Virus record (IMG/VR): IMGVR_UViG_3300010885_053065
Span: 1 to 64,000 of that record
Reading direction: 5' to 3' (one strand)
Length of the DNA: 64,000 bases
Source of the DNA: a virus
In this document: positions 17,771-54,234 of the stretch, piece after piece
Position numbering within the stretch: position 1 is the stretch's first letter
How the letters are laid out: every line of letters starts with the position of its first letter
The notes under the pieces: model-generated
What the model was told of the DNA's origin: nothing
Database searches by the model: none
The model's input: the letters and a program-made list of their open reading frames with translations, nothing else
Position numbers and translations under genes: made by a program

Positions 17771-17780
17771 CTATTATAGT

Positions 17781-19184
17781 TTATTCAAAAATATCAGATT
17801 TATTGATATTTTTGAAAACTTCTATTGCTGCTGTAGCTGAAGATTCAGTAGAGGATTTAGTTATCCTAACAACCTCTTTCTTTTTGCTGACAACAGGGAA
17901 TATTTCTAAACCAACTCTTTTTATATTGATTCCGGCATTAATATCTCTATCGATAAAAAGTTCTAATTCTTTATCAAAATACTCTCTAATTGAGCAATCA
18001 GTAAATACAAGCTCATCTCGATAGGAAAGTAATTGAGAAGTATATGCAGGATTAACTTTAACTACTTTAGCGTCATATTTTTGAGCAACCCATGTCAATA
18101 TCTCAACAAATTGTCCAAAAGCTGCATCTTGCCATGATTTATTTAAACCAGATTTAGATGATTGACCGTTAGGTAAATACGTTCCATCTTTATCTTGTTT
18201 GGCTTTATTTCTTTTTGTTAATCCTTTTAGATTTAAGTCTTCAACAAAGAATACTTTTTTGCCAGTTCTACACAAAGCATGAGCAATTTTATATTGAAAA
18301 TCTTTTCTTTGTCTAGCTATATGTTTATGAAGTTTAGCTTCTTTTATAGCTGCTTTTTTTCTTCGATTAGACCCTTTTTGTTTTTTAGCTTTTTCCTTAG
18401 AAATCTCAGCTAATTTATCTTGAGACTTCCTAAAAGCTTTCAATGAGTTGAGTTTTTCGCCTTCTGATGTTGCTAAATAAACATCATCTTTTAATACAGC
18501 ATCCAAGCCTATGGAATTATCCCAAGTTGGTAAAATTTCATCATCAATCTTGGTAGTAGTATGATCATCAATAATAAGCAATATATACCAACCATCTAGT
18601 TCTTTAGTGATACCAATCTGCTTAAGAATAAAACTTTCTGGTAATGGTCTATGAAGGTTAATTTTTACGTTCCCTATTTTTGGGATTCTAATTAACTTTT
18701 GTTTATTACTAATGTCCTCTTTTAACCAATTATCTTTAACGTTCTCAAAAAATAACGTTGTGTAGTCCTTACTTCCTTTGAACTTAGGTCTACCACTACG
18801 ATTGCCACTAGAATCTCCTTTAAGAAATCTTGTAAAAGCTAAATCAACTCTTTTACAAACGTTTTGCATTACAGAAGAATGTGGTTTAGCAAAATCTAGT
18901 ATTTCTCCTGAATGTTGAACAGCTACAGGAGATTTGTTTAATACAGCTATTTGTCTTTTTTGACTGTAATAATTCGGGCTATCTATCTTTGCTGATATTG
19001 AACAAGTAAGCGGACATCTATCAATTAAACAACTGTTATGACGTATGTTATTCTCTTCATACCAAGCAAAACGTTCACCAATCATTTTGTTATACCAATA
19101 TCGGCATATTCTCAACCAAATATTAAGTTCTTCTTCTTGTTCTTTTGTTTCAAATTCAATGAGGTATTTACGAGTGAGAATCAT
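17781..19184 (-). CDS. Compact TnpB-derived type V CRISPR effector (C2c8 / V-U2-like)
   Basis: RuvC motifs GLDAVL, FVEDL and DRDINAG. The TnpB Zn finger is replaced by TSQLLSYRDELVFTDCSIREY. Adjacent to anti-repeat and array. Confidence 0.85.
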   Translation of the reverse strand: MILTRKYLIEFETKEQEEELNIWLRICRYWYNKMIGERFAWYEENNIRHNSCLIDRCPLTCSISAKIDSPNYYSQKRQIAVLNKSPVAVQHSGEILDFAKPHSSVMQNVCKRVDLAFTRFLKGDSSGNRSGRPKFKGSKDYTTLFFENVKDNWLKEDISNKQKLIRIPKIGNVKINLHRPLPESFILKQIGITKELDGWYILLIIDDHTTTKIDDEILPTWDNSIGLDAVLKDDVYLATSEGEKLNSLKAFRKSQDKLAEISKEKAKKQKGSNRRKKAAIKEAKLHKHIARQRKDFQYKIAHALCRTGKKVFFVEDLNLKGLTKRNKAKQDKDGTYLPNGQSSKSGLNKSWQDAAFGQFVEILTWVAQKYDAKVVKVNPAYTSQLLSYRDELVFTDCSIREYFDKELELFIDRDINAGINIKRVGLEIFPVVSKKKEVVRITKSSTESSATAAIEVFKNINKSDIFE

Positions 19185-19249: not shown

Positions 19250-19305
19250 ATTCTCATTTTTGGTTTTATTGTGGGAAAATTAGAATTAATTGATTAGTTA
19301 CAATA
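19250..19305. repeat. 56-bp direct repeat, right flank of the type V cassette
   Basis: Copy of 17111-17166. Its ATG reads only MRMK-stop. Confidence 0.9.
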
Positions 19306-19332
19306 GATATGAAAACTTACTAATTAGTATTT

Positions 19333-26538: not shown

Positions 26539-27876
26539 GTGAACTACCCGTCGCTCTAGGAGCGCGGGCTTCCAATTTCAATAGGAATAACGTCTAACAA
26601 AACCGAAGTTTTACCAGCCCGACTTACATTCCCTCCATTGGCAGTGTCGCTAGTTCCTAACGACAATAATCGCAAGCCTTCTTCTCTTATGTTTATCGCT
26701 GCATTTATATCTCTATCGTGTTGAGTATGGCAGCTAGGGCACTCCCAATGTCTTACATCTAAGGGCATTTCCGACACTTTGTACAAGCAATTACTACAAG
26801 TCTTAGAGCTAGGAAACCATCTATCTATCTCTAGATAAACCTTTCCTTCTTTCTCTGCTTTGTACTTGAGCATTGTCCCAAACTTACCCCAACTAACATC
26901 ACTAATAGCTTTAGCTAATTTATGGTTGCGTACCATCCCTTTGACATTTAGATTTTCTACGACAATCACTTGGTTATCGTTGACTATCTTGCGAGATAGC
27001 TTGTGTAAAAAATCTTCCCTACAGCGACTTATTTTTGAATGTACTTTAGCTACTAATTTTCTAGCTTTATTTCTTGAGTTACTTCCTTTTTTCTTCCTAT
27101 TAAGTTTCTGTTGCTTCCTCTTAAGGTTCTTCTGATGTTTCTTGAAGTGTTTAGGATTATCGTATTTACTGCCATCACTGGTAATAGCAAAATGATTTAA
27201 TCCTACGTCTATTCCTATAGCTTTCCCTTCGATTATTGTAGTAGTAGAAGATTCTAATCCATTGTCTGTCAGAATAGAAGCAAAGTATTTACCATCTGGA
27301 TTCAGTGAGATAGTTACAGTTTTAATACTGCCCTCTATTGGTCTATGAATCTTACAGTAAATCTCTCCTATCTTAGGAAACTTAATCGCCTCATCTAATA
27401 TAGTTACTCGCTGAGGATAGCTAATAGATTGTTTACCATGCTTGGATTTGAAACTAGGTAAACCCGCACGTTTCTCAAAGAAGTTTTTGTAAGCAGTAGA
27501 TAAATTGAGTGCTACTACTTGGAGACATTGAGAGTAAGCATCAGACAGCCATTCATATTCTTTCTTTAGATTAGGTAATAAACCCTGAATAACTCCTCTT
27601 GATAGACCTTTACCTGTAGTCTTATAGGTTTCCTGACAAAGATTCAAGCTATAGTTCCAATACCACCTTACACATCCAAACGCCTTTGCTAGTTGCGTTT
27701 GCTGTTCATTAGTAGGATAGATTCTGAACTTATAGGCTTTATACATTTATCAGTTTTCTGTATTACTGCTACAAGTCTAGCGCAACAAAAGGAAGATTGC
27801 CAAAGATTCTAGACAATGGTTTGCTGTCAAAATTCATCCCGACGCTTATTAAGCGCGGGACTTCTTTTGGATTGAG
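26539..27876 (-). mobile_element. IS200/IS605-family tnpB-only element (IS1341-like)
   Basis: Subterminal hairpins CCCGCGCT…AGCGTCGGG and CCCGCGCT…AGCGACGGG. Left end follows TTAA, right end is …GTTCAC. No target duplication. Confidence 0.88.
26556..27746 (-). CDS. tnpB: RNA-guided endonuclease TnpB
   Basis: KAYKFRIYP, GIDVG, VVENL, CSNC…CPSC, DRDINAA. Confidence 0.95.
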   Translation of the reverse strand: MYKAYKFRIYPTNEQQTQLAKAFGCVRWYWNYSLNLCQETYKTTGKGLSRGVIQGLLPNLKKEYEWLSDAYSQCLQVVALNLSTAYKNFFEKRAGLPSFKSKHGKQSISYPQRVTILDEAIKFPKIGEIYCKIHRPIEGSIKTVTISLNPDGKYFASILTDNGLESSTTTIIEGKAIGIDVGLNHFAITSDGSKYDNPKHFKKHQKNLKRKQQKLNRKKKGSNSRNKARKLVAKVHSKISRCREDFLHKLSRKIVNDNQVIVVENLNVKGMVRNHKLAKAISDVSWGKFGTMLKYKAEKEGKVYLEIDRWFPSSKTCSNCLYKVSEMPLDVRHWECPSCHTQHDRDINAAINIREEGLRLLSLGTSDTANGGNVSRAGKTSVLLDVIPIEIGSPRS

Positions 27877-34938: not shown

Positions 34939-34984
34939 TATAGTAAATGTGCTCAATAAACATTTTTATTTATAGTCTAAACAC

Positions 34985-35013
34985 TTGACACTCACCCAAT
35001 AAAATGTTATACT
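34985..35013 (+). promoter_or_regulatory. Sigma70-type promoter
   Basis: TTGACA-17-TATACT. Confidence 0.8.
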
Positions 35014-35091
35014 GTATGTATACAAAAGGTTAAGAAATGACTTAACCAAGCACCTAGAAAACTTAACCATAAAAACAAAGGAGACAAAATC

Positions 35092-35394
35092 ATGCTTCAG
35101 TTTCTAATGATCGATGTAGTTAACATTAGTTCCAAAGTTTCAAGAGAAATCTTTCCTGAGACTGAGTTAGAAAAAATGGCTAACATTATTCTTCAGACAG
35201 GCGGTCTTCTAAGACCTCTAATTTTAAAGAAAGTAGGGTTTGAAAAGTACGAAGTTGTAGACGGACATTTTGAATACTACGCTTCCCTCAAAGCATTTGA
35301 AAAAGACATCGTTAAGGGAGAGATGGTTAACTCCTTTATCCTAGAAGAAAAACAAATAGAGCCAGCCAAAGAGCAAATAGCTCAATGGTTCTAA
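35092..35394 (+). CDS. Stand-alone ParB-like N-terminal domain
   Basis: GGLLRPLIL…YEVVDGHFEY. Confidence 0.7.
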   Translation: MLQFLMIDVVNISSKVSREIFPETELEKMANIILQTGGLLRPLILKKVGFEKYEVVDGHFEYYASLKAFEKDIVKGEMVNSFILEEKQIEPAKEQIAQWF

Positions 35395-35399
35395 TACTA

Positions 35400-35428
35400 A
35401 AAGAGAGGCTTTTCAACCTCTCTTTTTT
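35400..35428 (+). terminator. Rho-independent terminator
   Basis: AAAAGAGAGG…CCTCTCTTTTTT. Confidence 0.75.
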
Positions 35429-35499
35429 ACTGCCCGTAAAAATACTAATTTACTTTAGTAAATGTGCTCAATAAACATTTTTATTTATAGTCTAAACAC

Positions 35500-35528
35500 T
35501 TGACATTTACCCAAATAATTGTTATATT
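35500..35528 (+). promoter_or_regulatory. Sigma70-type promoter
   Basis: TTGACA-17-TATATT within a duplicated upstream block. Confidence 0.8.
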
Positions 35529-35593
35529 AAGTATATAAGGTTAAGAAATTAACCAGCACCTAGAAAAACAAATAAAACAAAGGAGACAAACCG

Positions 35594-36022
35594 ATGGAAG
35601 CGCTAGAAATGTTAACCCAAGCTGTTCTATTTTTGATTAACTCTTGTGATGGATGCCGTTCTCAGGATGGTAAAGGTTTTGACCGAACAGACCTTTACAA
35701 GTCAAGAGGAATAAAAGCAGAGATAGAAGAAAATGGGTACATTACCGAAAACAGTTTAATCTGGGCTAAGAAGGTGGTAGTCAAATACCACAGACAGCTA
35801 ACAAACTTCGATCTCAAGCTGATGCTACAAGCTGAGAAAAAGCCCAGAAAGATTCAAACTCTTGAGTACGATTCCAGAAGGAAACACCTCTGTGTAATCT
35901 ACCCATGTGGTGATTACCGGATGTATAAGACACCTGAGCTACCAGAGTCTCTAATAGAAGAAGCCAGAGAAATCTGGCGAAGAGCAAAAAGAGAGGAAAT
36001 TCCAATCTTAATCTTTGACTAA
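35594..36022 (+). CDS. Hypothetical protein
   Basis: AAGGAG RBS, CDG…DGKGF motif, terminator follows. Confidence 0.65.
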   Translation: MEALEMLTQAVLFLINSCDGCRSQDGKGFDRTDLYKSRGIKAEIEENGYITENSLIWAKKVVVKYHRQLTNFDLKLMLQAEKKPRKIQTLEYDSRRKHLCVIYPCGDYRMYKTPELPESLIEEAREIWRRAKREEIPILIFD

Positions 36023-36055
36023 AAACAAAAGCACTCAGAAACGGGTGCTTTTTTC

Positions 36056-36502
36056 ATGCCCACAATTATGTTATTATTCGATCAAAAAGGAGATAGAGCC
36101 ATGACGGTAGACAGAAAGCCATGTCCTCACTGTGGTAGTGAAAATGTTCGTAAGAACGGGGTTAACGACTCTGGTAACCCTAGATTATTTTGTAAGGATT
36201 GTAGAAAGAGTTTCTCTTTGATTGACGGAAAAACGATGATCACAGAGATTTTATGGAAACCCAAGAAAGATCTATACGACGAGGGCAAGAAACCATGTCC
36301 TCATTGTGGTAGTGGCAATATTAGTAAAAAAGGTAAGGATGAGTCAGGTAACCCTAGACTAGTTTGTAACGACTGTAAAAGGCAGTTCTCTTTAGAGGTA
36401 AACCCAAAGGGAGCTAAGACTATACTTCCAGATAGACCTCTAACTGGTTACGAAAGAGTAAAGAGATGTTTAGAAAAGAAAAAAAGTTTGAAAAATCTTT
36501 AA
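36056..36502 (+). CDS. Tandem InsA-like Zn-ribbon protein
   Basis: Two CPHCGS…KxG…SGNPRLxCxDC repeats. Start is probably 36101. Confidence 0.75.
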   Translation: MPTIMLLFDQKGDRAMTVDRKPCPHCGSENVRKNGVNDSGNPRLFCKDCRKSFSLIDGKTMITEILWKPKKDLYDEGKKPCPHCGSGNISKKGKDESGNPRLVCNDCKRQFSLEVNPKGAKTILPDRPLTGYERVKRCLEKKKSLKNL

Positions 36503-36598
36503 AAGTTCAGTGTTTATACGGATACACAAATAAAAATATCGGGTTATTATAAGAGTATAGAAAAACAAAAAAGCCGAGAGGCTAAAGGAGACAAGCAA

Positions 36599-36871
36599 AT
36601 GACTACTAAATTTTATGGCAATTCTACCGAAACTTATTGTGTAGTTGAAGGAAAAATCTACTTAATTCAATCAGTAGATCAACCAATCTTTACTCCAATT
36701 GACTACACTAACTGGGGTATGCCTCACAATGTGGAAGAAGTAGTTGACTTAAAAAATGATTCAGATTTTGTTGAAATCGTTAAAATGTGCGAAGATCCAT
36801 CTTATGAACGTGAAGATTTATATCAATTCCATGTCGGAACAACCTTTCAGACTATTCCACTAACTAAATAA
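36599..36871 (+). CDS. Hypothetical cassette protein
   Basis: Preceded by a duplicated promoter/RBS block. Confidence 0.65.
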   Translation: MTTKFYGNSTETYCVVEGKIYLIQSVDQPIFTPIDYTNWGMPHNVEEVVDLKNDSDFVEIVKMCEDPSYEREDLYQFHVGTTFQTIPLTK

Positions 36872-37060
36872 TTTTCCTTCATTCGTTCCCCTAGAGCTTT
36901 AACTCTAGGGGATTTTGTTATATGTATTATCCTGTAAAGTTCAGAAAGAAAAAACTACAAAATCTATAAAAGTTCAGTATTTATACGGATACACAAATAA
37001 AAATATCGGGTTATTATAAGAGTATAGAAAAACAAAAGCCGAGAGGCTAAAGGAGACAAG

Positions 37061-37414
37061 TTGACTAACGCAACTACAGCTATTCAATATTTCACAGTTG
37101 AATTTTACGGAACAGAACTAACAGCCGCTATTGATTACGAAGAAAAAGTGATCGGTTTAACAGACCCCGATCAAGTAGCAAATACAATTGATGGTATACT
37201 CGAAGAAAAAGGAATAAAAGAAACAATTGAGATAATCGACGACGAAACACAACAATCTTTTATTATTGAAAACCAAGAGTATGAGCACGCTCTAGACATT
37301 CTAAGACAAGAGTTATTTGAAAGCTTCGAGGCTTACGTCCTCAACCGATTTGGTTTTACTTTAGAACCAGATAATTGCATTCTTGAATCAGGAATACCTG
37401 ACTACCATTTCTAA
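37061..37414 (+). CDS. Hypothetical acidic cassette protein
   Basis: Same upstream block as the 36599 ORF. Confidence 0.65.
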   Translation: MTNATTAIQYFTVEFYGTELTAAIDYEEKVIGLTDPDQVANTIDGILEEKGIKETIEIIDDETQQSFIIENQEYEHALDILRQELFESFEAYVLNRFGFTLEPDNCILESGIPDYHF

Positions 37415-37462
37415 AAATAGTTAATTAACCTCCCCTAGAGTTGACTCTAGGGGTTTTGTTAT

Positions 37463-38044
37463 ATGTATTATCCTGTAGAGTTCAGAAAGAAAATACTAGA
37501 ATACTGGTTAGCCACTAACAAAAGCTGTAGACAGATTGGTAGAGAGTTTGGTGTGTCTGGCTCCTTTGTTGCTGATCTTGTTAATAGATATCAAGAGGCA
37601 GGCAATATTGATATAAAACCTTTTAAACCAAATAAAAAGAGTGCCTTAACTGAGGAACAAATTGATATTTTAATAGGCTTGATGATTGATTATTATGACA
37701 AACCTATCCCTTGGATTAAAGAAAAGTTTTTACAAGACACGGGAGTAGATTTTGCTAATGCAAGCATTCAGTATTATAGAGACAAGCTAAAGGGAAAGTA
37801 TGGAGCAATTGAATCTAAGAGGGTTCTACCCGAATCAGATCTCCCTACAAACCTTGACTCAACCAATCAGTTACAGCAGGGAAAGTGGAAATTAACATCA
37901 AAAGAGAAAGATATTTTAAAAGAAATAATAACTAGTAATCCAGATTCCAAGCTAAGAGAAATAGTTAGTTTTTTTAAACTGAAGACTGGTAAGGAGATTA
38001 CTACAGGTGCGGTTTGCTACTACAGGAAGAGGATTAACTCCTAA
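37463..38044 (+). CDS. HTH protein (IS630 N-domain-like, no catalytic domain)
   Basis: YPVEFRKKIL…SCRQIGREFGVS. Confidence 0.65.
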   Translation: MYYPVEFRKKILEYWLATNKSCRQIGREFGVSGSFVADLVNRYQEAGNIDIKPFKPNKKSALTEEQIDILIGLMIDYYDKPIPWIKEKFLQDTGVDFANASIQYYRDKLKGKYGAIESKRVLPESDLPTNLDSTNQLQQGKWKLTSKEKDILKEIITSNPDSKLREIVSFFKLKTGKEITTGAVCYYRKRINS

Positions 38045-44489: not shown

Positions 44490-45265
44490 TGTTTTTAAGA
44501 TCTCCTAGACCTGATTTACTAGAGACTAGAGATAACTTTGGGATTGTGGCAAGTAGTTTAGGTGACAATAATTTAAAAAGCAATTTGCTAAGTTATTGGG
44601 ATCTAACACCTGCCTCTAGTTATAATGATCTAACAAATAATGGTAGTAACTTAACGTTAATTAATTCTCCTAGTGGAGATAATACAAATGGTGTATTATT
44701 AAATGGTACTAATCAATATTTATCGGTTGCTAGTAATTCGTATCTTCAATTTACTAGTAGCGATTTTACTATAGCTGGTTGGATCAATCCAACTTCTTTA
44801 GCTGCCAACGGAAGTTACAATTTTATTGTTTGCCAAGACAATATTGGGGTTGGTAGAAATTGGGGGGTTATTTATGATCCGACTACTGCAGATACTAAAT
44901 TAAATTTTCAAATTTTTAACTCATCTGGATCAGCTTTCTCTGTTAAATCAAACTTTCAACCAACAATAAATAATTGGTATTTTTTAGTTGCAACACACTC
45001 TACCTCTGCAAAAAAAATTACATTTATTGTTTTTGAAGGGTCTACCACTACACCTGTTTACGCAGGTGTAGTGACTTACACAGGAACTTTGGCAACAAAT
45101 TCTTTACTAACTACTTTTGGTTGCGTTTTAATTTCTGGTAGTCCAAATTTTTATTTTAATGGTAGGTTAAAGCAATGGGGTATTTGGTCTAGAACATTAA
45201 CAGGATCAGATATTCTGCAACTGCATAATAGCGGTAATGGGTTATTTTTTTCTTCGCTAGATTAG
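44489..45265 (+). CDS. LamG/concanavalin A-like tail protein
   Basis: LNGTNQYL, FTIAGWI, WYFLVAT, FNGRL…IWSRTLT. Confidence 0.85.
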   Translation: MFLRSPRPDLLETRDNFGIVASSLGDNNLKSNLLSYWDLTPASSYNDLTNNGSNLTLINSPSGDNTNGVLLNGTNQYLSVASNSYLQFTSSDFTIAGWINPTSLAANGSYNFIVCQDNIGVGRNWGVIYDPTTADTKLNFQIFNSSGSAFSVKSNFQPTINNWYFLVATHSTSAKKITFIVFEGSTTTPVYAGVVTYTGTLATNSLLTTFGCVLISGSPNFYFNGRLKQWGIWSRTLTGSDILQLHNSGNGLFFSSLD

Positions 45266-45273
45266 AGTTAATA

Positions 45274-45960
45274 TTAATCAACATCTGATTGGTTGGATTG
45301 AGCAATATAAGAGATTAACTCAAGAAATCTACCACCACGCTTAGTAGATATCAATTGCTCTGTTGAGTGAAAATCTAATACTGAGTAGAGTTTAAATAGA
45401 TTCTGAGATTTGTAGACACCTGATAGTATCTCTGTCTTAGTGCATCCAAGAGACATTAACAGTTCAAAATAACCTAAAAACTCTATTAGCTCTTGTCTAT
45501 TTATAGTAAGTAGATTTATCTCAAAAAGTACAGGAAATATTTCTCTACTATTAGCTTCTTTAGCTAAGAATAAAATATGCTTTTGTCCAGATTCAGCTAT
45601 AGCAATAGTAAAAGGCGGTTCAGGAGGGTTAACAAGCCATTCTCTAATCTGTGGTCTTGTGGGTAAGTCGGTTACTCTATCACCTTCAATCTTAGGGTAA
45701 GACTCTTTCTCTGAAATTAACCAAGACCAACAACGACCAAATAATAGTACTTCTTTTTGACTATGTGGATTATAGTATTTAAGTCTTAGAGGGATAACGT
45801 AATGACAACGATCACATAACTTATCAGAGGTTGGAGACTTAGCTGAACTGTGAGCCGTGAAACTGTCTTTTAGTATTCCTTCTTTAGGTTTGGTGGCAGG
45901 AATTGAACCACAGAGATAGCATGAGTCTTTTATTTTAGTGTCACTAGTCACGTCACTCAC
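45274..45960 (-). CDS. csf1: Type IV CRISPR large subunit Csf1 (Cas8-like)
   Basis: CYLCG…LCDRC Zn finger and NPPEPPF…SGQKH. Confidence 0.8.
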   Translation of the reverse strand: MSDVTSDTKIKDSCYLCGSIPATKPKEGILKDSFTAHSSAKSPTSDKLCDRCHYVIPLRLKYYNPHSQKEVLLFGRCWSWLISEKESYPKIEGDRVTDLPTRPQIREWLVNPPEPPFTIAIAESGQKHILFLAKEANSREIFPVLFEINLLTINRQELIEFLGYFELLMSLGCTKTEILSGVYKSQNLFKLYSVLDFHSTEQLISTKRGGRFLELISYIAQSNQSDVD

Positions 45961-46046
45961 CTTGGCTTTGGTAATAGTTCTCTTGGAGAGTTGGGAGATT
46001 TGTGTGCTATGTCACTAAACACGACACTTGCCTTGGCTTTGGTAAT
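45940..46046 (-). CRISPR. Mini-array: repeat (46011-46046), 35-bp spacer, repeat (45940-45975)
   Basis: Two 36-bp degenerate repeats. The 46011 copy is 28/36 identical to the main array repeat. Confidence 0.7.
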
Positions 46047-46319
46047 ACTAAAATTGTGAACTGCATAAAGAGAAGTGACATCCTCAAAAATGATTTTCTC
46101 TTTAATTTTGAGATCTTCTAGGCTATCGTAATCTACAGGCTCTCCATCTTCGGTGAGCAAGAATATATCCTGAGCGCCTATTCTGAGTGCATAAACTACA
46201 TCAGGACGACTAGGCAGTGAGACGCTGTAAAGGGTATATTGTCCCATACTAATAAGGCTTAAAACAGCATCTGGGAGTTTACTGAGACGACTTTTTGGGA
46301 TGGACGAAGTGGTGATCAT
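45957..46319 (-). CDS. Hypothetical protein whose C-terminus reads through the mini-array
   Basis: GAGAGGA RBS, 120 aa, lies between repeats. Confidence 0.5.
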   Translation of the reverse strand: MITTSSIPKSRLSKLPDAVLSLISMGQYTLYSVSLPSRPDVVYALRIGAQDIFLLTEDGEPVDYDSLEDLKIKEKIIFEDVTSLYAVHNFSITKAKASVVFSDIAHKSPNSPRELLPKPR

Positions 46320-46496
46320 GGCTCTATCCTCTCTTTATTAGCTAATCTCAAAGTTGTAACAGATTACCAACTTGTTACCAAAAGATGATGGTGGCTAAAG
46401 TGAAGTAAATGGGTATTAATGGTTAACTAAGCATTATGCTCAATTTATGGATTACATTCTACCTACAATCTAGCTCACTAAAAATATTTATTTCTG

Positions 46497-46532
46497 GTCA
46501 CTAAACGCGTCACTTACCTTGGCTTTAGCAGT
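46497..46532 (-). repeat. Third CRISPR-like repeat
   Basis: GTCACTAAACGCGTCACTTACCTTGGCTTTAGCAGT (+), related to the 46011 copy. Confidence 0.7.
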
Positions 46533-46546
46533 AGCCTGTCTTTAGT

Positions 46547-46807
46547 TCAAGAGTAGATCAATTCAGCTATTCGTTTTTCCTCAGCCAGAAATTTTAATAA
46601 GTTATCGGGAAGCGGAACAGCTTGTAACTCAATCCAGTACAAACAATGTCTTGGCGCAAATTCTATATCACGATCTGTAGAAGATCCTACGGGAAAGCCA
46701 TTCATGTCTAAATATCTCAACACATCAAACAACTCCTCTTTGTCTTTTGTCCTAAATATCAACTTTGAAGAATTGCGAGGTGACTGCAAATATATTTCAT
46801 ACATCAT
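46547..46807 (-). CDS. Hypothetical protein
   Basis: 86 aa ORF. Confidence 0.5.
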   Translation of the reverse strand: MMYEIYLQSPRNSSKLIFRTKDKEELFDVLRYLDMNGFPVGSSTDRDIEFAPRHCLYWIELQAVPLPDNLLKFLAEEKRIAELIYS

Positions 46808-46809
46808 TT

Positions 46810-47165
46810 TTACCTTAATAGATGATAAACTTTATTGTTACACAACAAAAAACTTTTACCTATTTTCTCCAAACCTTTATTTAATATGTTGATTGCTGCA
46901 TTTTGATCCCTATCTAAAACACATTGACAGTGTGGGCATTGATGCAGTCTTACACTTAAAAGTTTTGGCACTTTTTCACCGCAACTTGAGCAATTCTGAG
47001 AAGTGTTGTGGGGGTTAACTTCTATTACTTGAACTCCAAACTTAGAAGCTATTTCCTTTAGTCTTAAAACAAAATAACCCCATGCTGCATTAGAAATAGC
47101 TTTAGAAGGATTTTCACAGTAAATTTTTGCATAACAGGATCGGTAGAGCCAAAACTTTTTTCATA
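46810..47165 (-). pseudogene. tnpB: Internally deleted tnpB remnant
   Basis: Manual translation: IYCENPSKAISNAAWG…EVNPHNTSQNCSSCGEKVPK…QCPHC…DRDQNAAINI. No in-frame start. Upstream hairpin GCCTAGA-TTAC-TCTAGGC. Confidence 0.85.
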
Positions 47166-47232
47166 TGACACTCCGATAGTTTTTATTAGCGAGAAATCAA
47201 AAAGCCTAGAGTAATCTAGGCTGATAGTGTGG

Positions 47233-47297
47233 TTTAGTATTCCTTCTTTAGATTTGGTGGCAGGAATCGAACCACAAAGATAGCAAGAGTCTTTCAC
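47233..47297 (-). pseudogene. Truncated duplicate of the csf1 5' end
   Basis: 47233-47294 is 58/62 identical to 45869-45930 (KDSCYLCGSIPATK.KEGIL). Confidence 0.9.
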
Positions 47298-47311
47298 GCA
47301 ATCTACAAATA

Positions 47312-47671
47312 TTATTTAAGTTTTTTCTCTATTGTAGTGGTGATGGTCTGATTGATAATCATAAGCTCTTTCTTGTTTTCGGTAATAGTTATAGTATGTT
47401 TGGTATCTTCTCTTACAGAATTTACTTCTGTATCATCTCTATTGGTATTAATAACTTTTTTAGAATAATCTACATCATACTCAATTCTTTTTATGTTGCA
47501 TGTTTTAGGTTGTAAATTACAACTGGGTTGAATACTGGTAGAGCATCTATTTAAATTTGATATTTTGCAAGCTGGCGTGTTTTTAAGAGTCTCAAGATCT
47601 TCTGCTAGCACACTATTTGTATTTACTTCTAATGCAATAAAAAGTAATAAAATAAACAATGAAATACGCAT
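47312..47671 (-). CDS. Secreted hypothetical protein
   Basis: N-terminal signal peptide and four Cys. Confidence 0.55.
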   Translation of the reverse strand: MRISLFILLLFIALEVNTNSVLAEDLETLKNTPACKISNLNRCSTSIQPSCNLQPKTCNIKRIEYDVDYSKKVINTNRDDTEVNSVREDTKHTITITENKKELMIINQTITTTIEKKLK

Positions 47672-47789
47672 AAGTTAAACCCCTGTTTCTTTATGATTTA
47701 TTAATATTTTAACAACAAAATATAGTTTTCTGTATACACTTTTCATTGTTTTAAGATATTCTCGTTTTATATTTAATAGTTCCGATAAT

Positions 47790-48374
47790 TTAAACAAACA
47801 CTCCACAACCTAACTTGTGTTTACCGCCAATACCTGACACTTGAAGCTTAATAGAATCTTCTTTACTTAAGTTAAATGCTTTAGCTTTAAACCCTACTAC
47901 AGTATAATTCCTCTCACTTCTTGGGATGCGTATTGTCAGTCTTTCTAATACTTCAATATCTGCTTTAATCTCTAACTTATCTAGTTGTTTATCTGCTGCT
48001 ATTTTAAATAGCTCTGGAGTGACAGCATTCTTGATTACAACCAATCTAGCTATTAACTCTGTTTTACCTTCTAGCATCCTATATAAAGGGTTTCCTAGCC
48101 TTATTTGGTAGCGCATTATCTTAAGGTTAGAGTCTTTAAGTTTAGTAAATAACTTGGCGTTATCTATAGTTGTTCTGATTAACAAAGTAGATTTATCTGT
48201 TAATTTAATCTCTCCATTGTTGTTAGGGAGTCCAGTTATTGTGTTAATAAAAACTTCCTCTAGACTATGGAGTTCTTGTATTTTTGAACACAAAGCAGAG
48301 TATAGATAATAATTATGGTCAGCATAGAGAGACTGACCATAAACAGGGAATAGAATATCAACAAATTGAGACAA
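47790..48374 (-). CDS. cas6: Cas6 endoribonuclease (Myxan/Cmx6-like)
   Basis: VDILFPV…ADHNYYLYSAL and C-terminal G-loop GIGGKHKLGCGVF. Confidence 0.9.
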   Translation of the reverse strand: MSQFVDILFPVYGQSLYADHNYYLYSALCSKIQELHSLEEVFINTITGLPNNNGEIKLTDKSTLLIRTTIDNAKLFTKLKDSNLKIMRYQIRLGNPLYRMLEGKTELIARLVVIKNAVTPELFKIAADKQLDKLEIKADIEVLERLTIRIPRSERNYTVVGFKAKAFNLSKEDSIKLQVSGIGGKHKLGCGVFV

Positions 48375-48393
48375 GTTAAATTAATTTCTCCAG

Positions 48394-49161
48394 TTACTGT
48401 AGAGACAAACTAACCAAGTTAAGTTTGTCTCTAGTCTCGTTCAAATCTTTTTCTATGTAATCTGAGACTGGAAAATCACTAAAAATATCAACAGAGTTTA
48501 CTCCTATATTCCAAGCTTTAACAATGCGCTCAGTTTTAAAATAATCAACTCCTTGTGCTTCTAAAAATATCTGTAGTTGCTCCAACAATAGAATAGGAGG
48601 ATTGCAGCGATTTATCATTCCTTCTTCAAAAGCAATTATTTCTAGTTCTCCTTGTACTGTAGTAGGAACATCTAGTAATATATGGTGAAAATCATGAACC
48701 AAGATATAGCTAGACGGAAACATTGATGGTTTATCTACTGTTGCTACGTTTCCATTATTTTGATAATACTGGTGTAGAGCATATCCTACTGTTCCCTTCT
48801 TACAAAAAGGAAGTTTTTTAAAAAGTTTTATATTTTCTGGGTTAGGAGTTAATGATTCTAAGAAATAGCTTTTGAGTCCAATTAATTTATCTTTTAAAGA
48901 CATAAAAGGCAATATTTTTGGCATTGTTTGTGTCCTTAAAGTACAAGTTGGTCTTACGTATTCAAACCTTATTCGGCTAAAGATCTGCCATAAATTAGCA
49001 GAAGTAACACCTAGTAAATTAACTGGTGTCAGTAAACTTACTACATCGATTTCTGGTTTAACTAATTTAATAATTTCTTCTCTATTTTCTGCTTGAATAA
49101 TTCGATTAAATAGATTATTATCGGTCAAAACTTGTTCAAGAAAATTAAGTTCAACAGTCAT
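48394..49161 (-). CDS. Coq4-like metalloprotein
   Basis: GTVGYAL and HDFHHIL…GELEIIAF (HDxxH…E). Confidence 0.7.
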   Translation of the reverse strand: MTVELNFLEQVLTDNNLFNRIIQAENREEIIKLVKPEIDVVSLLTPVNLLGVTSANLWQIFSRIRFEYVRPTCTLRTQTMPKILPFMSLKDKLIGLKSYFLESLTPNPENIKLFKKLPFCKKGTVGYALHQYYQNNGNVATVDKPSMFPSSYILVHDFHHILLDVPTTVQGELEIIAFEEGMINRCNPPILLLEQLQIFLEAQGVDYFKTERIVKAWNIGVNSVDIFSDFPVSDYIEKDLNETRDKLNLVSLSLQ

Positions 49162-49882
49162 AAAATGCCTCAGTTACATTCTGTTTTAAATATGAGTATA
49201 ACATAGGATTAAATCGCTTCATGTTCTCTAAAGAGGTTTTCTGTAAGGATTTGTTTTTGTTAGCAGAATACCAATAATTAGCATGAGCATTGGTTCTACT
49301 TGTTTTACGGTCTAATTTGTCATACAAGTCCAAGTAAGGAATATCATAATAAAAAAGATAAGCCCAAACATCCTGCCATGACCACCATGCAAGAGGACAT
49401 ACTCTATAGTATCCTTTATGTTTTCCTGTTTGGTATTGATGAATTAACCCGTATTTTTTTAGAGATCTTCTTCTATTAATACTTTCTTCTGCTCTTAGCC
49501 CAACAAAAGCCACACTGTAATCAACTACTGCATTTATCCTGTCTTGGACTGTATCAGAAGTAGCAGCATTCTCTTTTTGAGCTTTAATATCTAAATACTT
49601 AGTTGGAAATTTCTCACAATACCTAGAGATTGTTTCCGAGTAATTAGAAACATAATCTTGCTCTATTGAGCTATAACAAACTGCAGCAATATCAGGTTTA
49701 ATTTGTTGGCAAAGGTGCAACATTACGGTTGAATCTTTGCCCCAACTAATAGCTACATAAGAGTCACCAATCTCTAGAGCTTCAGAAATTATTTGCTTGG
49801 ATTTCTCTACTCTTTTTTTAAAGCTATCTAGTAGCGCATAACCTCTATAGGCTTGATATTCTGGATCATCTTTTAAAAGCAA
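49151..49882 (-). CDS. CysH-like PAPS reductase-family protein of a type IV-B locus
   Basis: SWGKDS, GLRAEESINR, PLAWWSWQDVWAY. Confidence 0.88.
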   Translation of the reverse strand: MLLKDDPEYQAYRGYALLDSFKKRVEKSKQIISEALEIGDSYVAISWGKDSTVMLHLCQQIKPDIAAVCYSSIEQDYVSNYSETISRYCEKFPTKYLDIKAQKENAATSDTVQDRINAVVDYSVAFVGLRAEESINRRRSLKKYGLIHQYQTGKHKGYYRVCPLAWWSWQDVWAYLFYYDIPYLDLYDKLDRKTSRTNAHANYWYSANKNKSLQKTSLENMKRFNPMLYSYLKQNVTEAFYDC

Positions 49883-49885
49883 CTG

Positions 49886-50584
49886 TCAATTAGCATTGGT
49901 TTTTAACCTAGGCTTCTCCTTAATCTGTCTTACATTGTCTTTTGGTATATAACACAGTACTTGATTCTGATGCATCCATGATGGTGTTTTCCAAGCCACA
50001 ACCATCATGTCATGCACCTCTAAATCTAGTTGCTGTGCCATCTCTAAAGGAATTGGTCTTGTGACACGTCTTTCTTTCTCAAACGACCAGTCATAGTCAA
50101 TTTCTTTAACTGACCACTCAGAGACATAAGCAAAGCCGTAGGATCTCTTTTTCCCTAAGTGAGTAACTGTAGATAGAGCTAACTTTATCTGCTCTTTATC
50201 TCCTACTACAAACCAGTCAATCCTTTCAGTAAGCTTCAAGAATAGAGGTAGATCATAAGACTTGAATTGACCATCTGAGCCAGAAAACTTAGCCTTCTTC
50301 TTACCCCAATCAAGATGCTCACTTTGATAATCCCACCGTTTTCTATATCTATCAGTACTCTCTATAGAGTATAAGTAGTGAGGACTAGAAGCTTGATAGA
50401 AACCTAGTTCATGCTTTTTAATTGGTAACTCAATCTCAGTTAAAGTCTCAAAGGTTACGTTAGTGTCAAGTCTACCAGTTGATTCTCTAACTGAGTACTC
50501 TATTATCCCTGTGATATCAGGAGAAAGATTGTCTGTTACAGCAATAGGTCTAGCTAGATTAGCTGTTATTTGTAAAGGAATCAT
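49886..50584 (-). CDS. csf3: Type IV Csf3 (Cas5-like)
   Basis: PLQITANL, WFVVGDKEQI, LGKKRSYGF, RPIP. Confidence 0.85.
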   Translation of the reverse strand: MIPLQITANLARPIAVTDNLSPDITGIIEYSVRESTGRLDTNVTFETLTEIELPIKKHELGFYQASSPHYLYSIESTDRYRKRWDYQSEHLDWGKKKAKFSGSDGQFKSYDLPLFLKLTERIDWFVVGDKEQIKLALSTVTHLGKKRSYGFAYVSEWSVKEIDYDWSFEKERRVTRPIPLEMAQQLDLEVHDMMVVAWKTPSWMHQNQVLCYIPKDNVRQIKEKPRLKTNAN

Positions 50585-51144
50585 GGCTTACTTAAATCCA
50601 ATTGATTACAAAGTTTATCTATTACCAAGTGATAAACAGTACCACTAGAGCCAGACTCATGTGTGTTAATTAATAGTTCAACTAAAGCAAAAAAACTTAA
50701 AGGTCCTTGAAGCGTTACGTCCAACTGCAAAGAAGAAATAACATTTTTTATCTTCTCAGCAAGAACGTTTAGTAGACACTTTTTAATCGAGATTCTTGAT
50801 GGCTCAAAAAGATGTACTGATAGATAAATATAGGCAGCAACTAGGTCAATTAGTGAGTGTTCTTCTGACTCAATATCAGTTGCTTCTGTTGTGGATAATA
50901 CTGATTCAATTGTTGTCATTTCTACCTGATTAATTATTTCTATTTGTTGTGATTCTTCTATTTTATCAATTGTCTCTTCTTGCTCAGTAATCCCAATACC
51001 GTGCTCATTTAGATATTTCAAATACCAATTACGCATCGTTTTAGGAGGAACCAAAGGGAAATCTTTATAAAGTCTTCTAGGTTGACTTCCATTTCTAAAC
51101 CTATTTAATATCTCTGACTTGTACTTGTCTCCTCTACTAGCCAT
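50581..51144 (-). CDS. HTH protein paralogous to the TerS N-terminus
   Basis: YKDFPLVPPKTMRNW versus YKEFSDVPPKTIRNW in 25213-25698. Confidence 0.7.
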   Translation of the reverse strand: MASRGDKYKSEILNRFRNGSQPRRLYKDFPLVPPKTMRNWYLKYLNEHGIGITEQEETIDKIEESQQIEIINQVEMTTIESVLSTTEATDIESEEHSLIDLVAAYIYLSVHLFEPSRISIKKCLLNVLAEKIKNVISSLQLDVTLQGPLSFFALVELLINTHESGSSGTVYHLVIDKLCNQLDLSKP

Positions 51145-52307
51145 TATCCAAATACTCCCTTGATTTCACTGTTATTACTTTTAATAAACTCTCGATAATC
51201 AGCCAGATAAGATTTATATCTCTCTTGCTGTAGACTAGCTCTACTTTCTAATACTTGATGTCCATCTTTAATTGATATCCAACTACCTGCTTCTTCTCCA
51301 CTAGAGTAATAAATCTCTACAGCAACTCTACCGAAACCTGTATTACTCATCCCTCCTAAATAAGGATTCTCTGCCCAATTGCTAATAGCATCAGCTATAA
51401 ACCCTTCCTCAATATCAGTAACGTTAGCATCCCACCGAGAGTAGAGTTTTGCTCCTTGCTGTATTAACCATGCACCCATAATCATTTGATTAGACTTTTG
51501 TTTCTCTTCTTTTTTCTCTGTACTATCTCCAAATAAAGATTGTTGTCCTTCTTTAGATGCAGCAGGCAATAAGTACTTAACAAGAGAAGGATCATGGTGT
51601 GAGTCCATTCTTACCTTTTGGTTATAGGTTAACCAGTGTGGGTAAGGTCTGAGAATCTCTTGTAGGTAGGGTAGCCAATACTTTAGAGTTTCTTTGTAGC
51701 TAGTATCGTCTAGCGTCTGTTCTCTCTTAAAGAGGAAATTAGAGACTCTTGTTTCCTCTAAATCTTTTTTAGCTTGAGAGATAGCTTTTAACCCCTCTAA
51801 AGCAGCTGCAGGTAAAGCAGGTTGAAATATTTGAAACTGATTTAAGGCTGACTCGTAACAAATAAGCATTGCATCGCCAACATTAATCCGACCTGGAATC
51901 ATTTGAGCATCTTTACCACCAAAGACTCCTTTAGGTTTAGCTGTTCCTAGTACTGATATAGGAGGTAAAAACTGTCTTATCTTTTTATCAAGCTCTAGAT
52001 CATTAGCTGTACCACCATCAATTGCACCACCACAGAACAAAGTATGATGCAAGATTGGAGATACCTGTATCCCTAGTTCACTTAAGAAAGAATCGACTCC
52101 TACACGTCTTAATATTCTGTTCCTTAGTGCGTTACCTGAGAGACAAAATACTTGGCTAGGATTGCCTTCTATATCGGTTATAGCTAGAGTTTTGAGGTTA
52201 GCTTGATTGCCTACTGATTCTCCAATATGGGATAGAGGTGACAAAGTTTCTATTACTAAGTGAAAAGTAATTCTGTGGCGTTGGTTCGGGTTGTAATTAT
52301 TTGGCAT
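51144..52307 (-). CDS. csf2: Type IV Csf2 (Cas7-like)
   Basis: TLSPLSH, SGNALR…LRR, LFCGG, PPISVLG, LGGMSNTGFG. Confidence 0.9.
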   Translation of the reverse strand: MPNNYNPNQRHRITFHLVIETLSPLSHIGESVGNQANLKTLAITDIEGNPSQVFCLSGNALRNRILRRVGVDSFLSELGIQVSPILHHTLFCGGAIDGGTANDLELDKKIRQFLPPISVLGTAKPKGVFGGKDAQMIPGRINVGDAMLICYESALNQFQIFQPALPAAALEGLKAISQAKKDLEETRVSNFLFKREQTLDDTSYKETLKYWLPYLQEILRPYPHWLTYNQKVRMDSHHDPSLVKYLLPAASKEGQQSLFGDSTEKKEEKQKSNQMIMGAWLIQQGAKLYSRWDANVTDIEEGFIADAISNWAENPYLGGMSNTGFGRVAVEIYYSSGEEAGSWISIKDGHQVLESRASLQQERYKSYLADYREFIKSNNSEIKGVFG

Positions 52308-52616
52308 TTAACTATTAATTATCTCCTCTTCATCTGGATAAACCTTTGTGGTCTTTTCACTTACGTAATAAATTTCAAGATTTGGACAAAGAGACAATAT
52401 TTTGTCTGACTCTTCTTGTCGTCTTTGTTTTTCATACTCAATCATTTTATCTATTAACAATTCTTCATCTTTTTCTTGATGAGCGTCTACAAGGAACTTA
52501 GCTACTTTATCTAAATTTCTACTTATTTCATTGGGATTATTACAATCAATAGACTCTACAAACAATCGTCCTGCATCATCTGGAGTCAACTTCTCTATCG
52601 CCTTTTTAGACATCAA
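52308..52616 (-). CDS. Hypothetical protein in the type IV operon
   Basis: Coupled ORF. Confidence 0.5.
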   Translation of the reverse strand: MMSKKAIEKLTPDDAGRLFVESIDCNNPNEISRNLDKVAKFLVDAHQEKDEELLIDKMIEYEKQRRQEESDKILSLCPNLEIYYVSEKTTKVYPDEEEIINS

Positions 52617-53118
52617 TTACATCCTCATCTTCTTGTTTATTGAGCCATAAAGCTTTATCTTCTTCATGTTTTAAGCGAACATATAAAGCGACAATTTGTG
52701 ACTTTTCTAGACACTGTCTTAATACGGCTCTATCGGTTATTCCAAACTGAATAGACCACCGTTTTATTATATCTTCCCAAGATTCCCACACTAAAGACTG
52801 ATCTGAGTCAATCTGTTGTATTTCTCCTACATTTCCATCCTCAGCTTTAGCTGCTCTTAAAATTACTTGTTGAGGTTGAACTAATCTAGTCCACTCTTTA
52901 GGTTTAAGTGTTGGAACAACCAATCTTTTAGAGAGATAGTGAATATAGTCGTTTAAGTTTCTAGAGGGAATAGCAGCATTTTCTATTGATGTTTGAACAT
53001 ACTCCCAAGTCTTAATTCCGTTAGCAGGAGAACGTTGTTTGTCACGGCATCTAAATACCCAATAAGTTAAGGCGCTAGCTAAAGCTATTGGTTTGTCTTC
53101 TGTATTAATTCCTAACAA
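52606..53118 (-). CDS. Putative Cas11 small subunit
   Basis: Small helical protein upstream of csf2. Call rests mainly on position and the W…I..AA…L..Y pattern. Confidence 0.6.
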   Translation of the reverse strand: MLGINTEDKPIALASALTYWVFRCRDKQRSPANGIKTWEYVQTSIENAAIPSRNLNDYIHYLSKRLVVPTLKPKEWTRLVQPQQVILRAAKAEDGNVGEIQQIDSDQSLVWESWEDIIKRWSIQFGITDRAVLRQCLEKSQIVALYVRLKHEEDKALWLNKQEDEDVIDV

Positions 53119-53393
53119 ATTCTTGTCCCTATTTCTATTAATAATTTTCCGTCAGAATCTAATTGATATTCTATAAATTCTAACTTACGGTAAACAATTT
53201 GATTACCTGTGTGATAACACTTGTTTATCTTTATACACATATATTCAATTGACGGAGATTTGTATTTTTTTAAATGATTCTGTAAACGCTTTTTACAATC
53301 TTCTAGATTATAAAAATTTCTTCGTTCAATACAATACTCTGTTTTTTTAGAGATTAAATCTACTTTAATATACTCAAAATAATAAAAAAACAT
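53112..53393 (-). CDS. Hypothetical AT-rich inserted gene
   Basis: Flanked by an exact 16-bp direct repeat (53100-53115, 53409-53424). Confidence 0.5.
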   Translation of the reverse strand: MFFYYFEYIKVDLISKKTEYCIERRNFYNLEDCKKRLQNHLKKYKSPSIEYMCIKINKCYHTGNQIVYRKLEFIEYQLDSDGKLLIEIGTRIC

Positions 53394-53514
53394 ATTTTTT
53401 TTTATTTCCTGTATTAATTCCTAATATTAGTTTTTTGATTCATTGGCTTTAAAAACACACAACATACTAGGGATCGGGGTAAATAAACAAAATACCCCAA
53501 TAGAACGATAATAC

Positions 53515-54234
53515 TTAAGCAAAGAAACGAGTGATTGCTAACTCTAATTCTTCGCTATCTTCGTACACATTAATATCTCTTAATTGACCATTACAAAGGC
53601 GACTTTCTTTAGAAGAAATCAACCCTTGTGCTGAGACAAATTTACCTAACCTGACTCGATTCTTGCTTGTGACCTTGTAACCCATCTCTTCAGCCTTTTG
53701 AGCAGCACCCACTAATCGAGCAGAAGGCAACACGGTTGTTGTAGTCTGTCCACTTAATTCACACAACTGATCGCCTAACTGATCTCTCAGTAGTTGAATC
53801 ATTGCAGCAGGTAGCCGACCCTCTAAAAAGACTAAATCTTTGGAAGCATTGATTAGGTCAACTGCATCTCTTTTAGGTGGCAGCTTTTGAACAGGAATTG
53901 CTGTTGAATAAGATCCAACTTTGCGAATGCTAGGGATGACTTCAGAGGTTAACCACTTTTTAAAAGCTTTGGCTTCTGGCTTACGAGAAGTAAGAACTAG
54001 TGAATATAGTCCAGACTCTGAAATAACCGACATACTTTGAATACGATTCATGGCGTCGCTAATACCGACATCATCTTTTTCGTCATCATCTAATCGTGTT
54101 AAAGCATCTCGACTATTAGATATCTCCAAAACTTTGCACACATCTAATGCAACAAACCAAGGCTCACCATTAATTACTATTACTCGTACTTGATTCTCGT
54201 TGAAGCTAAAAATTGATAGACTGTGATCAGTCAC
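53515..54234 (-). CDS. BRO-N antirepressor
   Basis: EPWFVALDVC…ISESGLYSLVLTSRKPEAK. Confidence 0.9.
   Translation of the reverse strand: MTDHSLSIFSFNENQVRVIVINGEPWFVALDVCKVLEISNSRDALTRLDDDEKDDVGISDAMNRIQSMSVISESGLYSLVLTSRKPEAKAFKKWLTSEVIPSIRKVGSYSTAIPVQKLPPKRDAVDLINASKDLVFLEGRLPAAMIQLLRDQLGDQLCELSGQTTTTVLPSARLVGAAQKAEEMGYKVTSKNRVRLGKFVSAQGLISSKESRLCNGQLRDINVYEDSEELELAITRFFA

Follow-up and report, generated by a model that had tools for sequence, protein, structure and literature searches.

The 64,000-nucleotide (nt) stretch of DNA examined here, referred to as the window, comprises the first 64 kb of an 89,719-bp virus record in IMG/VR (IMGVR_UViG_3300010885_053065), which carries direct terminal repeats and is rated 100% complete. 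It belongs to a phage with tail, portal, integrase and DNA-polymerase genes. Within this one complete 89.7-kb phage genome, a TnpB-like nuclease gene with an anti-repeat and a CRISPR array is found together with a type IV-B-like gene module and a cas6. Three further repeat units of 36 nt, termed M1 to M3, are located 28.5 kb from the array, ahead of and across the start of csf1, the gene for the type IV Cas8-like protein. We consider it fairly probable that M1-M3 represent the array, now decayed, of a second TnpB-plus-CRISPR cassette, which was inserted into the 5' end of csf1 and is now a mosaic with two small genes. Best read in this way, the element is an orphan, decayed CRISPR remnant and thus an object of a known kind.

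All three units lie on the minus strand, M1 at 45940..45975, M2 at 46011..46046 and the solitary M3 at 46497..46532. A repeat search recovered them as a single family with copies at 45939-45976, 46010-46047 (87%) and 46496-46533 (79%). M1 and M2 enclose 35 nt resembling a spacer (45976..46010), while 450 nt separate M2 from M3. With unit spacings of 71 and 486 nt and copies that are 29-31/36 alike (M1-M2 31/36, M2-M3 30/36, M1-M3 29/36, i.e., 5-7 differing positions of 36), the units do not form a series of near-identical, regularly spaced repeats. M1 and M2, read on the minus strand, are identical over their first 16 and last 7 nt. Compared with the array repeat, M2 is the nearest copy (28/36, or 29/36 with the fourth array repeat), followed by M1 (25-26/36) and M3 (24-25/36), against a background of 21-23/36 for the best unrelated 36-mers of the genome. 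A search pattern built from the positions that units and array have in common matched eight sites in the window, namely the five array repeats and M1-M3, all on the plus strand, and no site in 100 shuffled sequences; the whole 89.7-kb genome contains the same eight sites and no further ones. A putative fourth M copy at 47372-47398 (70-74% over 27 nt) was recovered by neither blastn nor nhmmer and is treated as a chance similarity. The initial annotation had described three 36-bp repeats in the orientation of the array, the middle one 28/36 identical to an array repeat some 29 kb away and two of them enclosing a 35-bp spacer, and had placed the TnpB/C2c8-like array and the region upstream of csf1 in one repeat family; all of this is borne out.

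The position of the units coincides with an insertion scar. A 1.29-kb segment (47221 to 45931, minus strand) lies between two copies of csf1 codons 2-25, which form a 73-nt direct duplication of 89% identity (47294-47222 versus 45930-45858). The downstream copy (45858..45930, minus strand) is part of the intact csf1 gene. The upstream copy of the csf1 5' end (47222..47297, minus strand) retains a native-type GTG at 47297, which opens a 77-amino-acid (aa) open reading frame (ORF; 47064..47297) consisting of csf1 codons 1-25 followed by unrelated sequence. On the minus strand, cas6 is followed by a 119-aa signal-peptide ORF, 14 nt, the truncated csf1 copy and, directly past it, a terminator-like hairpin with a T-run (47203..47222, minus strand). 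Between the two brackets, the order continues from this hairpin with a TnpB fragment, an 86-aa ORF, M3, a 120-aa ORF, M2, the spacer and M1, which is separated by 9 nt from the bracket copy in the intact csf1. On the favored reading, the repeats would sit on the csf1 start because the cassette landed in the 5' end of this gene.

The TnpB fragment (46810..47160, minus strand) consists of 116 open codons (47160-46813) without a start and represents a C-terminal part with RuvC and zinc-finger regions, as expected of a remnant of the IS200/IS605 insertion sequence type. Over 81 aa, a stretch with the CxxC...CxxC and DRDxNAA motifs, its identity to the full TnpB encoded at 26556..27746 is 44%, and its identity to the array-linked TnpB-like protein is 40%; tblastn searches against these two full TnpB-family genes of the phage gave E values of 3e-12 and 8e-10. 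Regarding IS200/IS605-type ends, the hairpin at 47222-47203 directly follows the duplication boundary, while no right end is definable. Thus, the M units have no intact RuvC effector beside them, as this start-less fragment is all that adjoins M3. Two further TnpB features were considered and rejected. Homing guides in the style of TnpB would have to reside in the 9 nt past M1 and the 23 nt past the last array repeat, which are both outside the duplications and do not match native upstream sequence. An N-terminal TnpB piece within the 73-nt duplication, suggested by a weak frame-shifted LPNLKKEY match (E 0.03 in a 3-kb search), was dropped because the CYLCG N-terminus, read in the csf1 frame, recurs in Csf1 homologues.

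The model for the proposed insertion is the intact cassette of the same phage (17111..19309, minus strand), which comprises the TnpB/C2c8-like gene (17781..19184), an anti-repeat (17666-17701) and a five-repeat array (17193-17512). This array is the only true CRISPR array of the phage, with five 36-nt repeats showing 0-1 differences (35-36/36) at 63-76-nt spacing and spacers of 38, 27, 40 and 35 nt. The cassette is likewise bracketed, in this case by a 56-60-nt duplication (17111-17169 and 19250-19309; 56/56 positions ungapped at 96%) that spans the sequence upstream of a DUF433 gene along with the initial 8 nt of that gene. From this bracketing, it looks as if the TnpB-like gene, anti-repeat and array had moved as one cassette. 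Moreover, the csf1 insertion has the order and spacing of the intact cassette, in which the TnpB-like gene is followed by 268 nt with the anti-repeat and then by the array: the distance from the nuclease stop to the first repeat is 268 nt in the intact cassette versus 277 nt in the csf1 insertion, and the repeats have the same polarity. Both units therefore follow a common plan of duplicated target 5' end, nuclease gene, 268/277 nt, repeats, 23/9 nt and intact target gene. Insertion of a nuclease-plus-array unit has thus apparently happened on two occasions, and in both the unit came to lie between duplicate copies of the 5' end of the next gene; this double bracketed insertion suggests that minimal type V-like units move as cassettes.

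Whether the array-linked gene is to be called C2c8 is unproven. Its product scored 131 bits with the NCBIfam model V_cas_c2c8, below the cut-off of 350, and 186.8 bits with the generic guided_TnpB model, over the cut-off of 100; a close relative of this nuclease was not found in IMG/VR. Between gene and array (17513-17780), the anti-repeat forms an inverted copy of the repeat with 26/36 identical positions. The duplex of array repeat and anti-repeat has a predicted energy of -30.3 kcal/mol, which was reached by none of 300 shuffles against the 46-nt anti-repeat and by 1 of 300 against the whole 268-nt interval. As such pairing is a signature of the trans-activating CRISPR RNA (tracrRNA) type, the TnpB-like gene is most likely the one to which the array belongs, and the minimal phage TnpB-like system probably uses a tracrRNA-like RNA. 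In the csf1 insertion, no anti-repeat was found between the TnpB fragment and M3, an interval occupied by the 86-aa ORF. A possible sixth array repeat beyond the DUF433 gene (16872-16907) matched at 21/36 and is within background. Spacer 1 (17229-17266), spacer 3 (17366-17405) and the sequence after the last repeat (17513-17534) have a motif of about 15-20 nt in common, which makes them look like variants of a single target; no match to such a target was found.

The consequences of the insertion for csf1 can be read from its 5' end. The gene (45274..45960, minus strand; 228 aa) has an N-terminal extension of 9-12 residues encoded by M1. Its frame opens with a GTG at 45960, and another GTG follows in frame at 45951; M1 contains the two of them, in agreement with the earlier statement that the sole plausible GTG starts fall within the last repeat, and no further ATG, GTG or TTG occurs in the csf1 frame ahead of the conserved CYLCG motif. 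At the position where the truncated copy keeps its native-type GTG, the intact csf1 has ATA at 45933. In addition, the first cysteine is found at residue 4-5 in 105 of 120 Csf1-family proteins and at residue 5, the normal spacing, in the truncated copy, compared with residue 14 in the intact csf1. The ATA and the displaced cysteine together indicate that the intact csf1 lost its own start during the rearrangement. If translated, csf1 accordingly starts from a GTG inside M1. Likely routes are translational coupling to the 120-aa ORF, the TGA stop of which lies in M1 and overlaps the first csf1 GTG as GTGA, or initiation at the second GTG, which is preceded 5 nt upstream by a Shine-Dalgarno-like AAGGTGA run, read directly from the sequence and also part of M1. 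A promoter scan yielded no more sites than shuffled sequences.

The 120-aa ORF (45957..46319, minus strand) has one 99-aa homologue, which is 88% identical over 95 residues, and identity to it stops at residue 91; residue 92 is the first codon of M2, and M2 corresponds to codons 92-103. As a weak PHROG hit likewise covers residues 7-89 with a 101-position profile, residues 1-91 appear to derive from a real gene of about 95-100 aa, the end of which has been replaced by read-through of M2, spacer and M1 (residues 92-120). Relatives of the 120-aa ORF were found neither in IMG/VR nor in Joint Genome Institute (JGI) metagenome contigs. The 86-aa ORF (46547..46807, minus strand; function unassigned) fills the interval from the TnpB fragment to M3, which starts 14 nt past this ORF and 277 nt downstream of the TnpB-fragment stop. 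It has no relative in IMG/VR and no counterpart inside the intact cassette. A protein-atlas look-up of the two small ORFs gave nothing usable.

In the favored scenario, both cassettes would have arrived by the same kind of recombination, which duplicated the 5' end of the target gene. Loss of its nuclease and decay would then have befallen the second cassette. The intact csf1 copy would, as a side effect, have been deprived of its native start, for which a GTG in M1 accidentally provides a substitute; the repeats themselves are not thought to act as RNA. Several observations weigh against this scenario. Identity between the TnpB fragment and the array-linked nuclease is only 40%, while the repeats are about 70-80% alike, and the fragment has zinc-finger cysteines, which the array-linked nuclease lacks; fragment and repeats may thus have arrived separately. 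Two apparently real small genes inside the supposed cassette make it a mosaic rather than a copy that has simply decayed. TnpB cargo is not the only kind to show the bracket signature, as it also occurs around a cas6 cassette in a related locus (see below) and around other small ORFs of the phage. Furthermore, the pairing of M2 with the 46-nt anti-repeat exceeds that of all 300 shuffles, cas6 is encoded on the same strand at 1.3-1.9 kb upstream, an orderly impression is given by the GTGA overlap and by the AAGGTGA run, and csf1 is intact. Finally, the loci available for comparison include no close relative of the insertion, so that conservation of the repeats is not disproved by them.

These related loci, 52 in number (L009-L060), were found in IMG/VR with the csf1 protein and were examined with up to 8 kb on each side, contig permitting. 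In none of the 52 does any 36-mer come as close as 10 substitutions to one or the other repeat type, and the single match with 11 substitutions (L051) is at chance level; tblastn of the 120-, 86-, 119- and 77-aa ORFs gave no match in any of them. In 25 of the 52 loci, csf1 starts downstream of cysH, a 255-aa gene or csf3 at a distance of up to 150 nt, in three it is divergent from the gene ahead of csf2, and in five a gap of 0.4-1.8 kb precedes it; no upstream module gene was matched in the remaining 19, owing to other gene orders or short contigs. The repeat family is also absent, at up to 3 mismatches, from the whole records of all five cas6-bearing relatives, one of which is 96% complete. 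The initial annotation had suggested that a repeat family may be common to the type V and type IV systems. That they share it by design is not supported, given the insertion scar, the absence of the repeats from all 52 loci, which was the check on related phages proposed at that time, and the mutual degeneracy of the units.

One of the related loci (L013) carries a scar of the same type. Its cas6 ORF begins with the csf1 N-terminus, as positions 1973-2005 are identical to the csf1 start (3228-3260) at 32/33 positions, which points to a 1.25-kb cassette of cas6 plus two ORFs that sits within the 5' end of csf1 and is accompanied by a duplication of the same kind. Hence, cassettes have landed repeatedly at the csf1 5' end, and the duplication signature reflects how these phages gain cassettes rather than a TnpB cargo. 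The recurrent landing at this site illustrates how accessory genes join and rearrange phage type IV modules. In the same locus, expression of cas6 would yield a fusion with the initial ~14 codons of csf1 (1964-2596 and 3219-3866). Within the window, direct duplications of 52-92 nt, derived from upstream or 5' sequence, bracket each of several small ORFs at 34941-37501; these duplications are apparently repeated regulatory or start regions.

Arrays and TnpB genes were also noted among the relatives. In a 74-kb record with terminal repeats and cas6 in its type IV module (G004, the record of L031), two oppositely oriented arrays with a 36-nt hairpin repeat (6066-6427 and 14612-15118) are located at a distance of about 40-50 kb from the cas genes; arrays are absent from the closest complete relative. 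Two loci (L042 and L045) encode a TnpB-like protein 28-29% identical to that of the window beside arrays of a different 37-nt repeat, in L042 as a two-repeat array directly after csf1 (8757-8848) and in L045 as a unit at 12567-14565. Judged from these loci, nuclease-plus-array units recur beside this type IV module. The gene at 26556..27746 of the window is a second complete TnpB gene of the phage, encoding 396 aa with a zinc finger, and a TnpB 64% identical to its product adjoins csf1 in L009.

Among the alternative explanations, a working mini-array of the type IV-B-like system fares best, although we consider it unlikely. Here, the neighbouring Cas6 would cut an M3...M2-spacer-M1 RNA co-transcribed with the 120-aa ORF and csf1 and provide one CRISPR RNA (crRNA) for the Csf complex; as the cut in M1 would remove both GTG starts, it would at the same time throttle Csf1, which corresponds to the feedback control envisaged in the initial annotation. 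The same-strand cas6 upstream, the identical ends of M1 and M2 and the location of both csf1 starts inside M1 are in line with this idea, and the 74-kb cas6-bearing relative with its true arrays far from the type IV genes indicates that array use is possible for modules of this clade. Binding of unstructured repeats occurs with some Cas6 enzymes. However, folding of M1-M3 gave no conserved hairpin and no common fold, the folds being weak and differing between copies, whereas the repeats of the 74-kb relative form a clear hairpin; at gathering thresholds, Rfam found nothing in the window, and in 45200-47400 there were two sub-threshold chance hits to small nucleolar RNAs. The repeats are moreover degenerate, are missing from the five cas6-bearing records and the 52 loci, and are separated from cas6 by the terminator-like hairpin.

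The lack of a target for the 35-nt spacer speaks against the same explanation. Target searches covered the own genome, GenBank phages, IMG/VR and 1.06 Mb of related loci, with host genomes left out. In the own genome, the best ungapped match was 21/35, equal to shuffled controls, no 14-nt seed with up to 2 mismatches occurred near a cas gene, and the longest exact word was 10 nt. GenBank phages gave only 17-20-nt chance matches (E about 4), a pattern scan of IMG/VR gave none, and the best protospacer candidates in the related loci, at 21-25 of 35-40 positions, were at chance level. The spacer search proposed in the initial annotation thus found no target in any of these collections, so that the units differ in this respect from a functional array, in which a spacer matches a target. 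For the spacers of the intact array, a 16/17 match of spacer 1 in csf2 of four loci (L037-L040) did not extend, and the one 28-nt match of the array region to GenBank phages, in a Helicobacter phage (E 0.1), was rejected as a protospacer.

A related proposal, to which we assign little probability, is a live mini-array co-transcribed with the 120-aa ORF and csf1 and cut in M1, the nuclease being either Cas6 or the TnpB-like effector together with the anti-repeat RNA. With this anti-repeat RNA, M2 keeps about two thirds of the pairing energy. If true, one crRNA-like RNA would be made and the only GTG starts of csf1 would be removed, so that RNA processing by one CRISPR system would set the large-subunit level of another in the same phage; processed repeats would thus constitute a rare case of cross-talk between two CRISPR types. 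The csf1 feedback control of the initial annotation is disfavored by the insertion scar, the absence of the repeats from the 52 loci, the degenerate units, the lost anti-repeat pairing of M1 and the spacer without a target.

Similarly improbable is a recombination module, in which the dispersed repeats would serve as homology patches and small genes would be captured or exchanged as gene-sized 'spacers'. The 120-aa gene is indeed flanked by M3 and M2, its homology to the relative ends exactly at M2, and small ORFs bracketed by 50-90-nt direct duplications occur elsewhere in the phage. However, this would be a single such case, seen in no relative, and the putative sixth copy at 16872-16907 does not rise above background.

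The units might also be a trans substrate of the type V-like system, with M2 pairing with the anti-repeat RNA and the TnpB-like protein loading the spacer or binding or cutting the csf1 leader; this reading would link the two CRISPR systems, but we regard it as very improbable. The orientation is that of the array, and with the 46-nt anti-repeat M2 reaches -19.3 kcal/mol, a value not attained by any of 300 shuffles, M3 -17.4 kcal/mol (10/300) and M1 -12.8 kcal/mol (52/300). Nevertheless, the pairing of M2 is 11 kcal/mol weaker than that of the array repeat, and M1, the unit on the start codon, pairs worst. When the whole 268-nt region is considered, M1-M3 are no better than shuffled sequences, of which 82, 141 and 166 of 300, respectively, reach the observed values. 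Again, the spacer has no target in the searches made. Co-folding with the anti-repeat, another check set out in the initial annotation, therefore shows that M1 has lost its pairing and that M2 and M3 have lost a third or more.

That solitary units such as M3 act as an RNA decoy, mimicking the repeat of a host to soak up host Cas proteins as described for solitary repeat units and mini-arrays of phages (PMC10651486), hardly deserves credence, since the units resemble the array of the phage itself rather than a known host array and no array of this pattern was found in 185,579 species-representative genomes, JGI metagenomes or IMG/VR. These scans, which would miss diverged repeats, gave no match in IMG/VR, one single GC-rich chance match in the species-representative genomes and two chance matches in JGI metagenomes; a pattern of the 3' half of the repeat gave 18 single matches, all by chance, the best of them (L084) in unrelated coding DNA.

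The favored reading, a relic of a second cassette, can be compared with several described systems, among which the csf1 units would best fit the remnants of lost effector-array units (PMC10120712). In Francisella, a degenerate repeat and a solitary repeat are described as left after loss of a V-A locus (PMC10120712), and in both cases repeat remnants mark a former effector-plus-array site. In contrast to the Francisella remnant as described there, part of the nuclease survives in the present phage, the scar is located inside another CRISPR operon and a cas gene now begins within one of the repeats. Well described, too, are regulatory mini-arrays and cr-like RNAs, the spacers of which partly match the promoter of a cas or toxin gene; in the survey of such elements, repeat-like sequences are reported not to be in excess in type IV loci (Shmakov et al. 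2023, PMC10120712), which also speaks against a Cas6-processed mini-array. The csf1 units share with regulatory mini-arrays the one or two degenerate repeats with a single spacer between cas genes. Unlike in the cases reported (PMC10120712), their spacer has neither a seed nor a full match in the genome, and thus no partial match to a cas or toxin promoter or 5' region, and repeats of a type V-like family sit inside a type IV operon. With the RNA anti-CRISPRs (Racrs) and solitary repeat units, they have in common that repeat-like units occur on a phage outside a regular array; Racrs are reported to mimic host repeats (PMC10651486), whereas M1-M3 match only the array of the phage itself and no host array of this family was found in the collections scanned.

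The intact cassette has a counterpart in cyanophage vB_AphaS-CL131, for which a putative V-U2 locus with 36-nt repeats and 26-45-nt spacers has been described and no tracrRNA is reported in that account (PMC6293099); its repeat was taken from the GenBank record for comparison. Both phages encode a TnpB-like protein of about 466 aa, followed after a gap of about 250 nt by a same-strand downstream array of 36-nt repeats, spacer lengths are uneven in both (26-45 nt in CL131, 27-40 nt in the intact cassette) and adaptation genes are found in neither, as far as the CL131 description goes (PMC6293099). In contrast, the repeats are unrelated (<22/36), the proteins are 29% identical over 307 aa, and the array repeat of the present phage has a clear anti-repeat, while none is reported as a tracrRNA for CL131 (PMC6293099). 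Likewise, the published account of CL131 mentions neither a second decayed copy nor type IV genes (PMC6293099).

The type IV module receiving the insertion comprises, on the minus strand, csf2 (51144..52307), csf3 (49886..50584), a cysH-like gene with a PAPS-reductase domain (49151..49882; PAPS_reduct E 4.5e-16) and the Cmx6-like cas6 (47790..48374), located upstream of the insertion with 173 bits in the Pfam Cas6 model and a score over the TIGR02807 cut-off. The PADLOC profiles for type IV Cas8, Cas7 and Cas5 matched with E values of 2e-25, 5e-43 and 1e-38. Type IV-B CRISPR-Cas systems are described as containing csf1, cas11, csf2 and csf3 with a cysH-like gene (PMC7937560, PMC8175902). The module shares with them csf1, csf2, csf3 and the adjacent PAPS-reductase-domain gene as well as the lack of helicase (including DinG or RecD), nuclease and adaptation genes, no helicase profile matching any ORF from 45274 to 54234. 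It differs from the described systems (PMC7937560, PMC8175902) in being carried by a tailed phage, in the order csf2, csf3, cysH-like gene, csf1, in a cas11 unrecognized by profiles and in the presence of cas6, which departs from the usual description of type IV-B as having no cas6 and no array. By gene content, the module is a type IV-B-like set with an added cas6.

Two unassigned ORFs of the module, for which profiles gave no match, may represent the missing cas11. One encodes 187 aa and lies between csf2 and csf3 (50581-51144, minus strand); it has no tblastn match (E <= 1e-4) in the 52 related loci. The other, a 170-aa ORF before csf2 (52606-53118), is conserved in most relatives. A search of a protein collection with csf1 gave 119 homologues among the best 120 listed, and tblastn of csf1 against 50,697 GenBank phage records gave no match. 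Phage type IV-B-like systems of this clade thus seem to be known only from metagenomes. The arrangement of 170-aa gene, csf2, csf3, cysH-like gene and csf1, in some cases with cas6, is widespread on 40-95-kb metagenomic viral contigs.

DNA similar to the window was found neither in GenBank phages nor in PLSDB plasmids, and a transfer RNA scan of it returned none. Contigs with pieces identical to the window occur in a second freshwater metagenome from another study (X2), where the segment 46279-46653, including M3, is present with 0 differences; the coverage of the X2 contigs omits 46010-46210 and hence M2.

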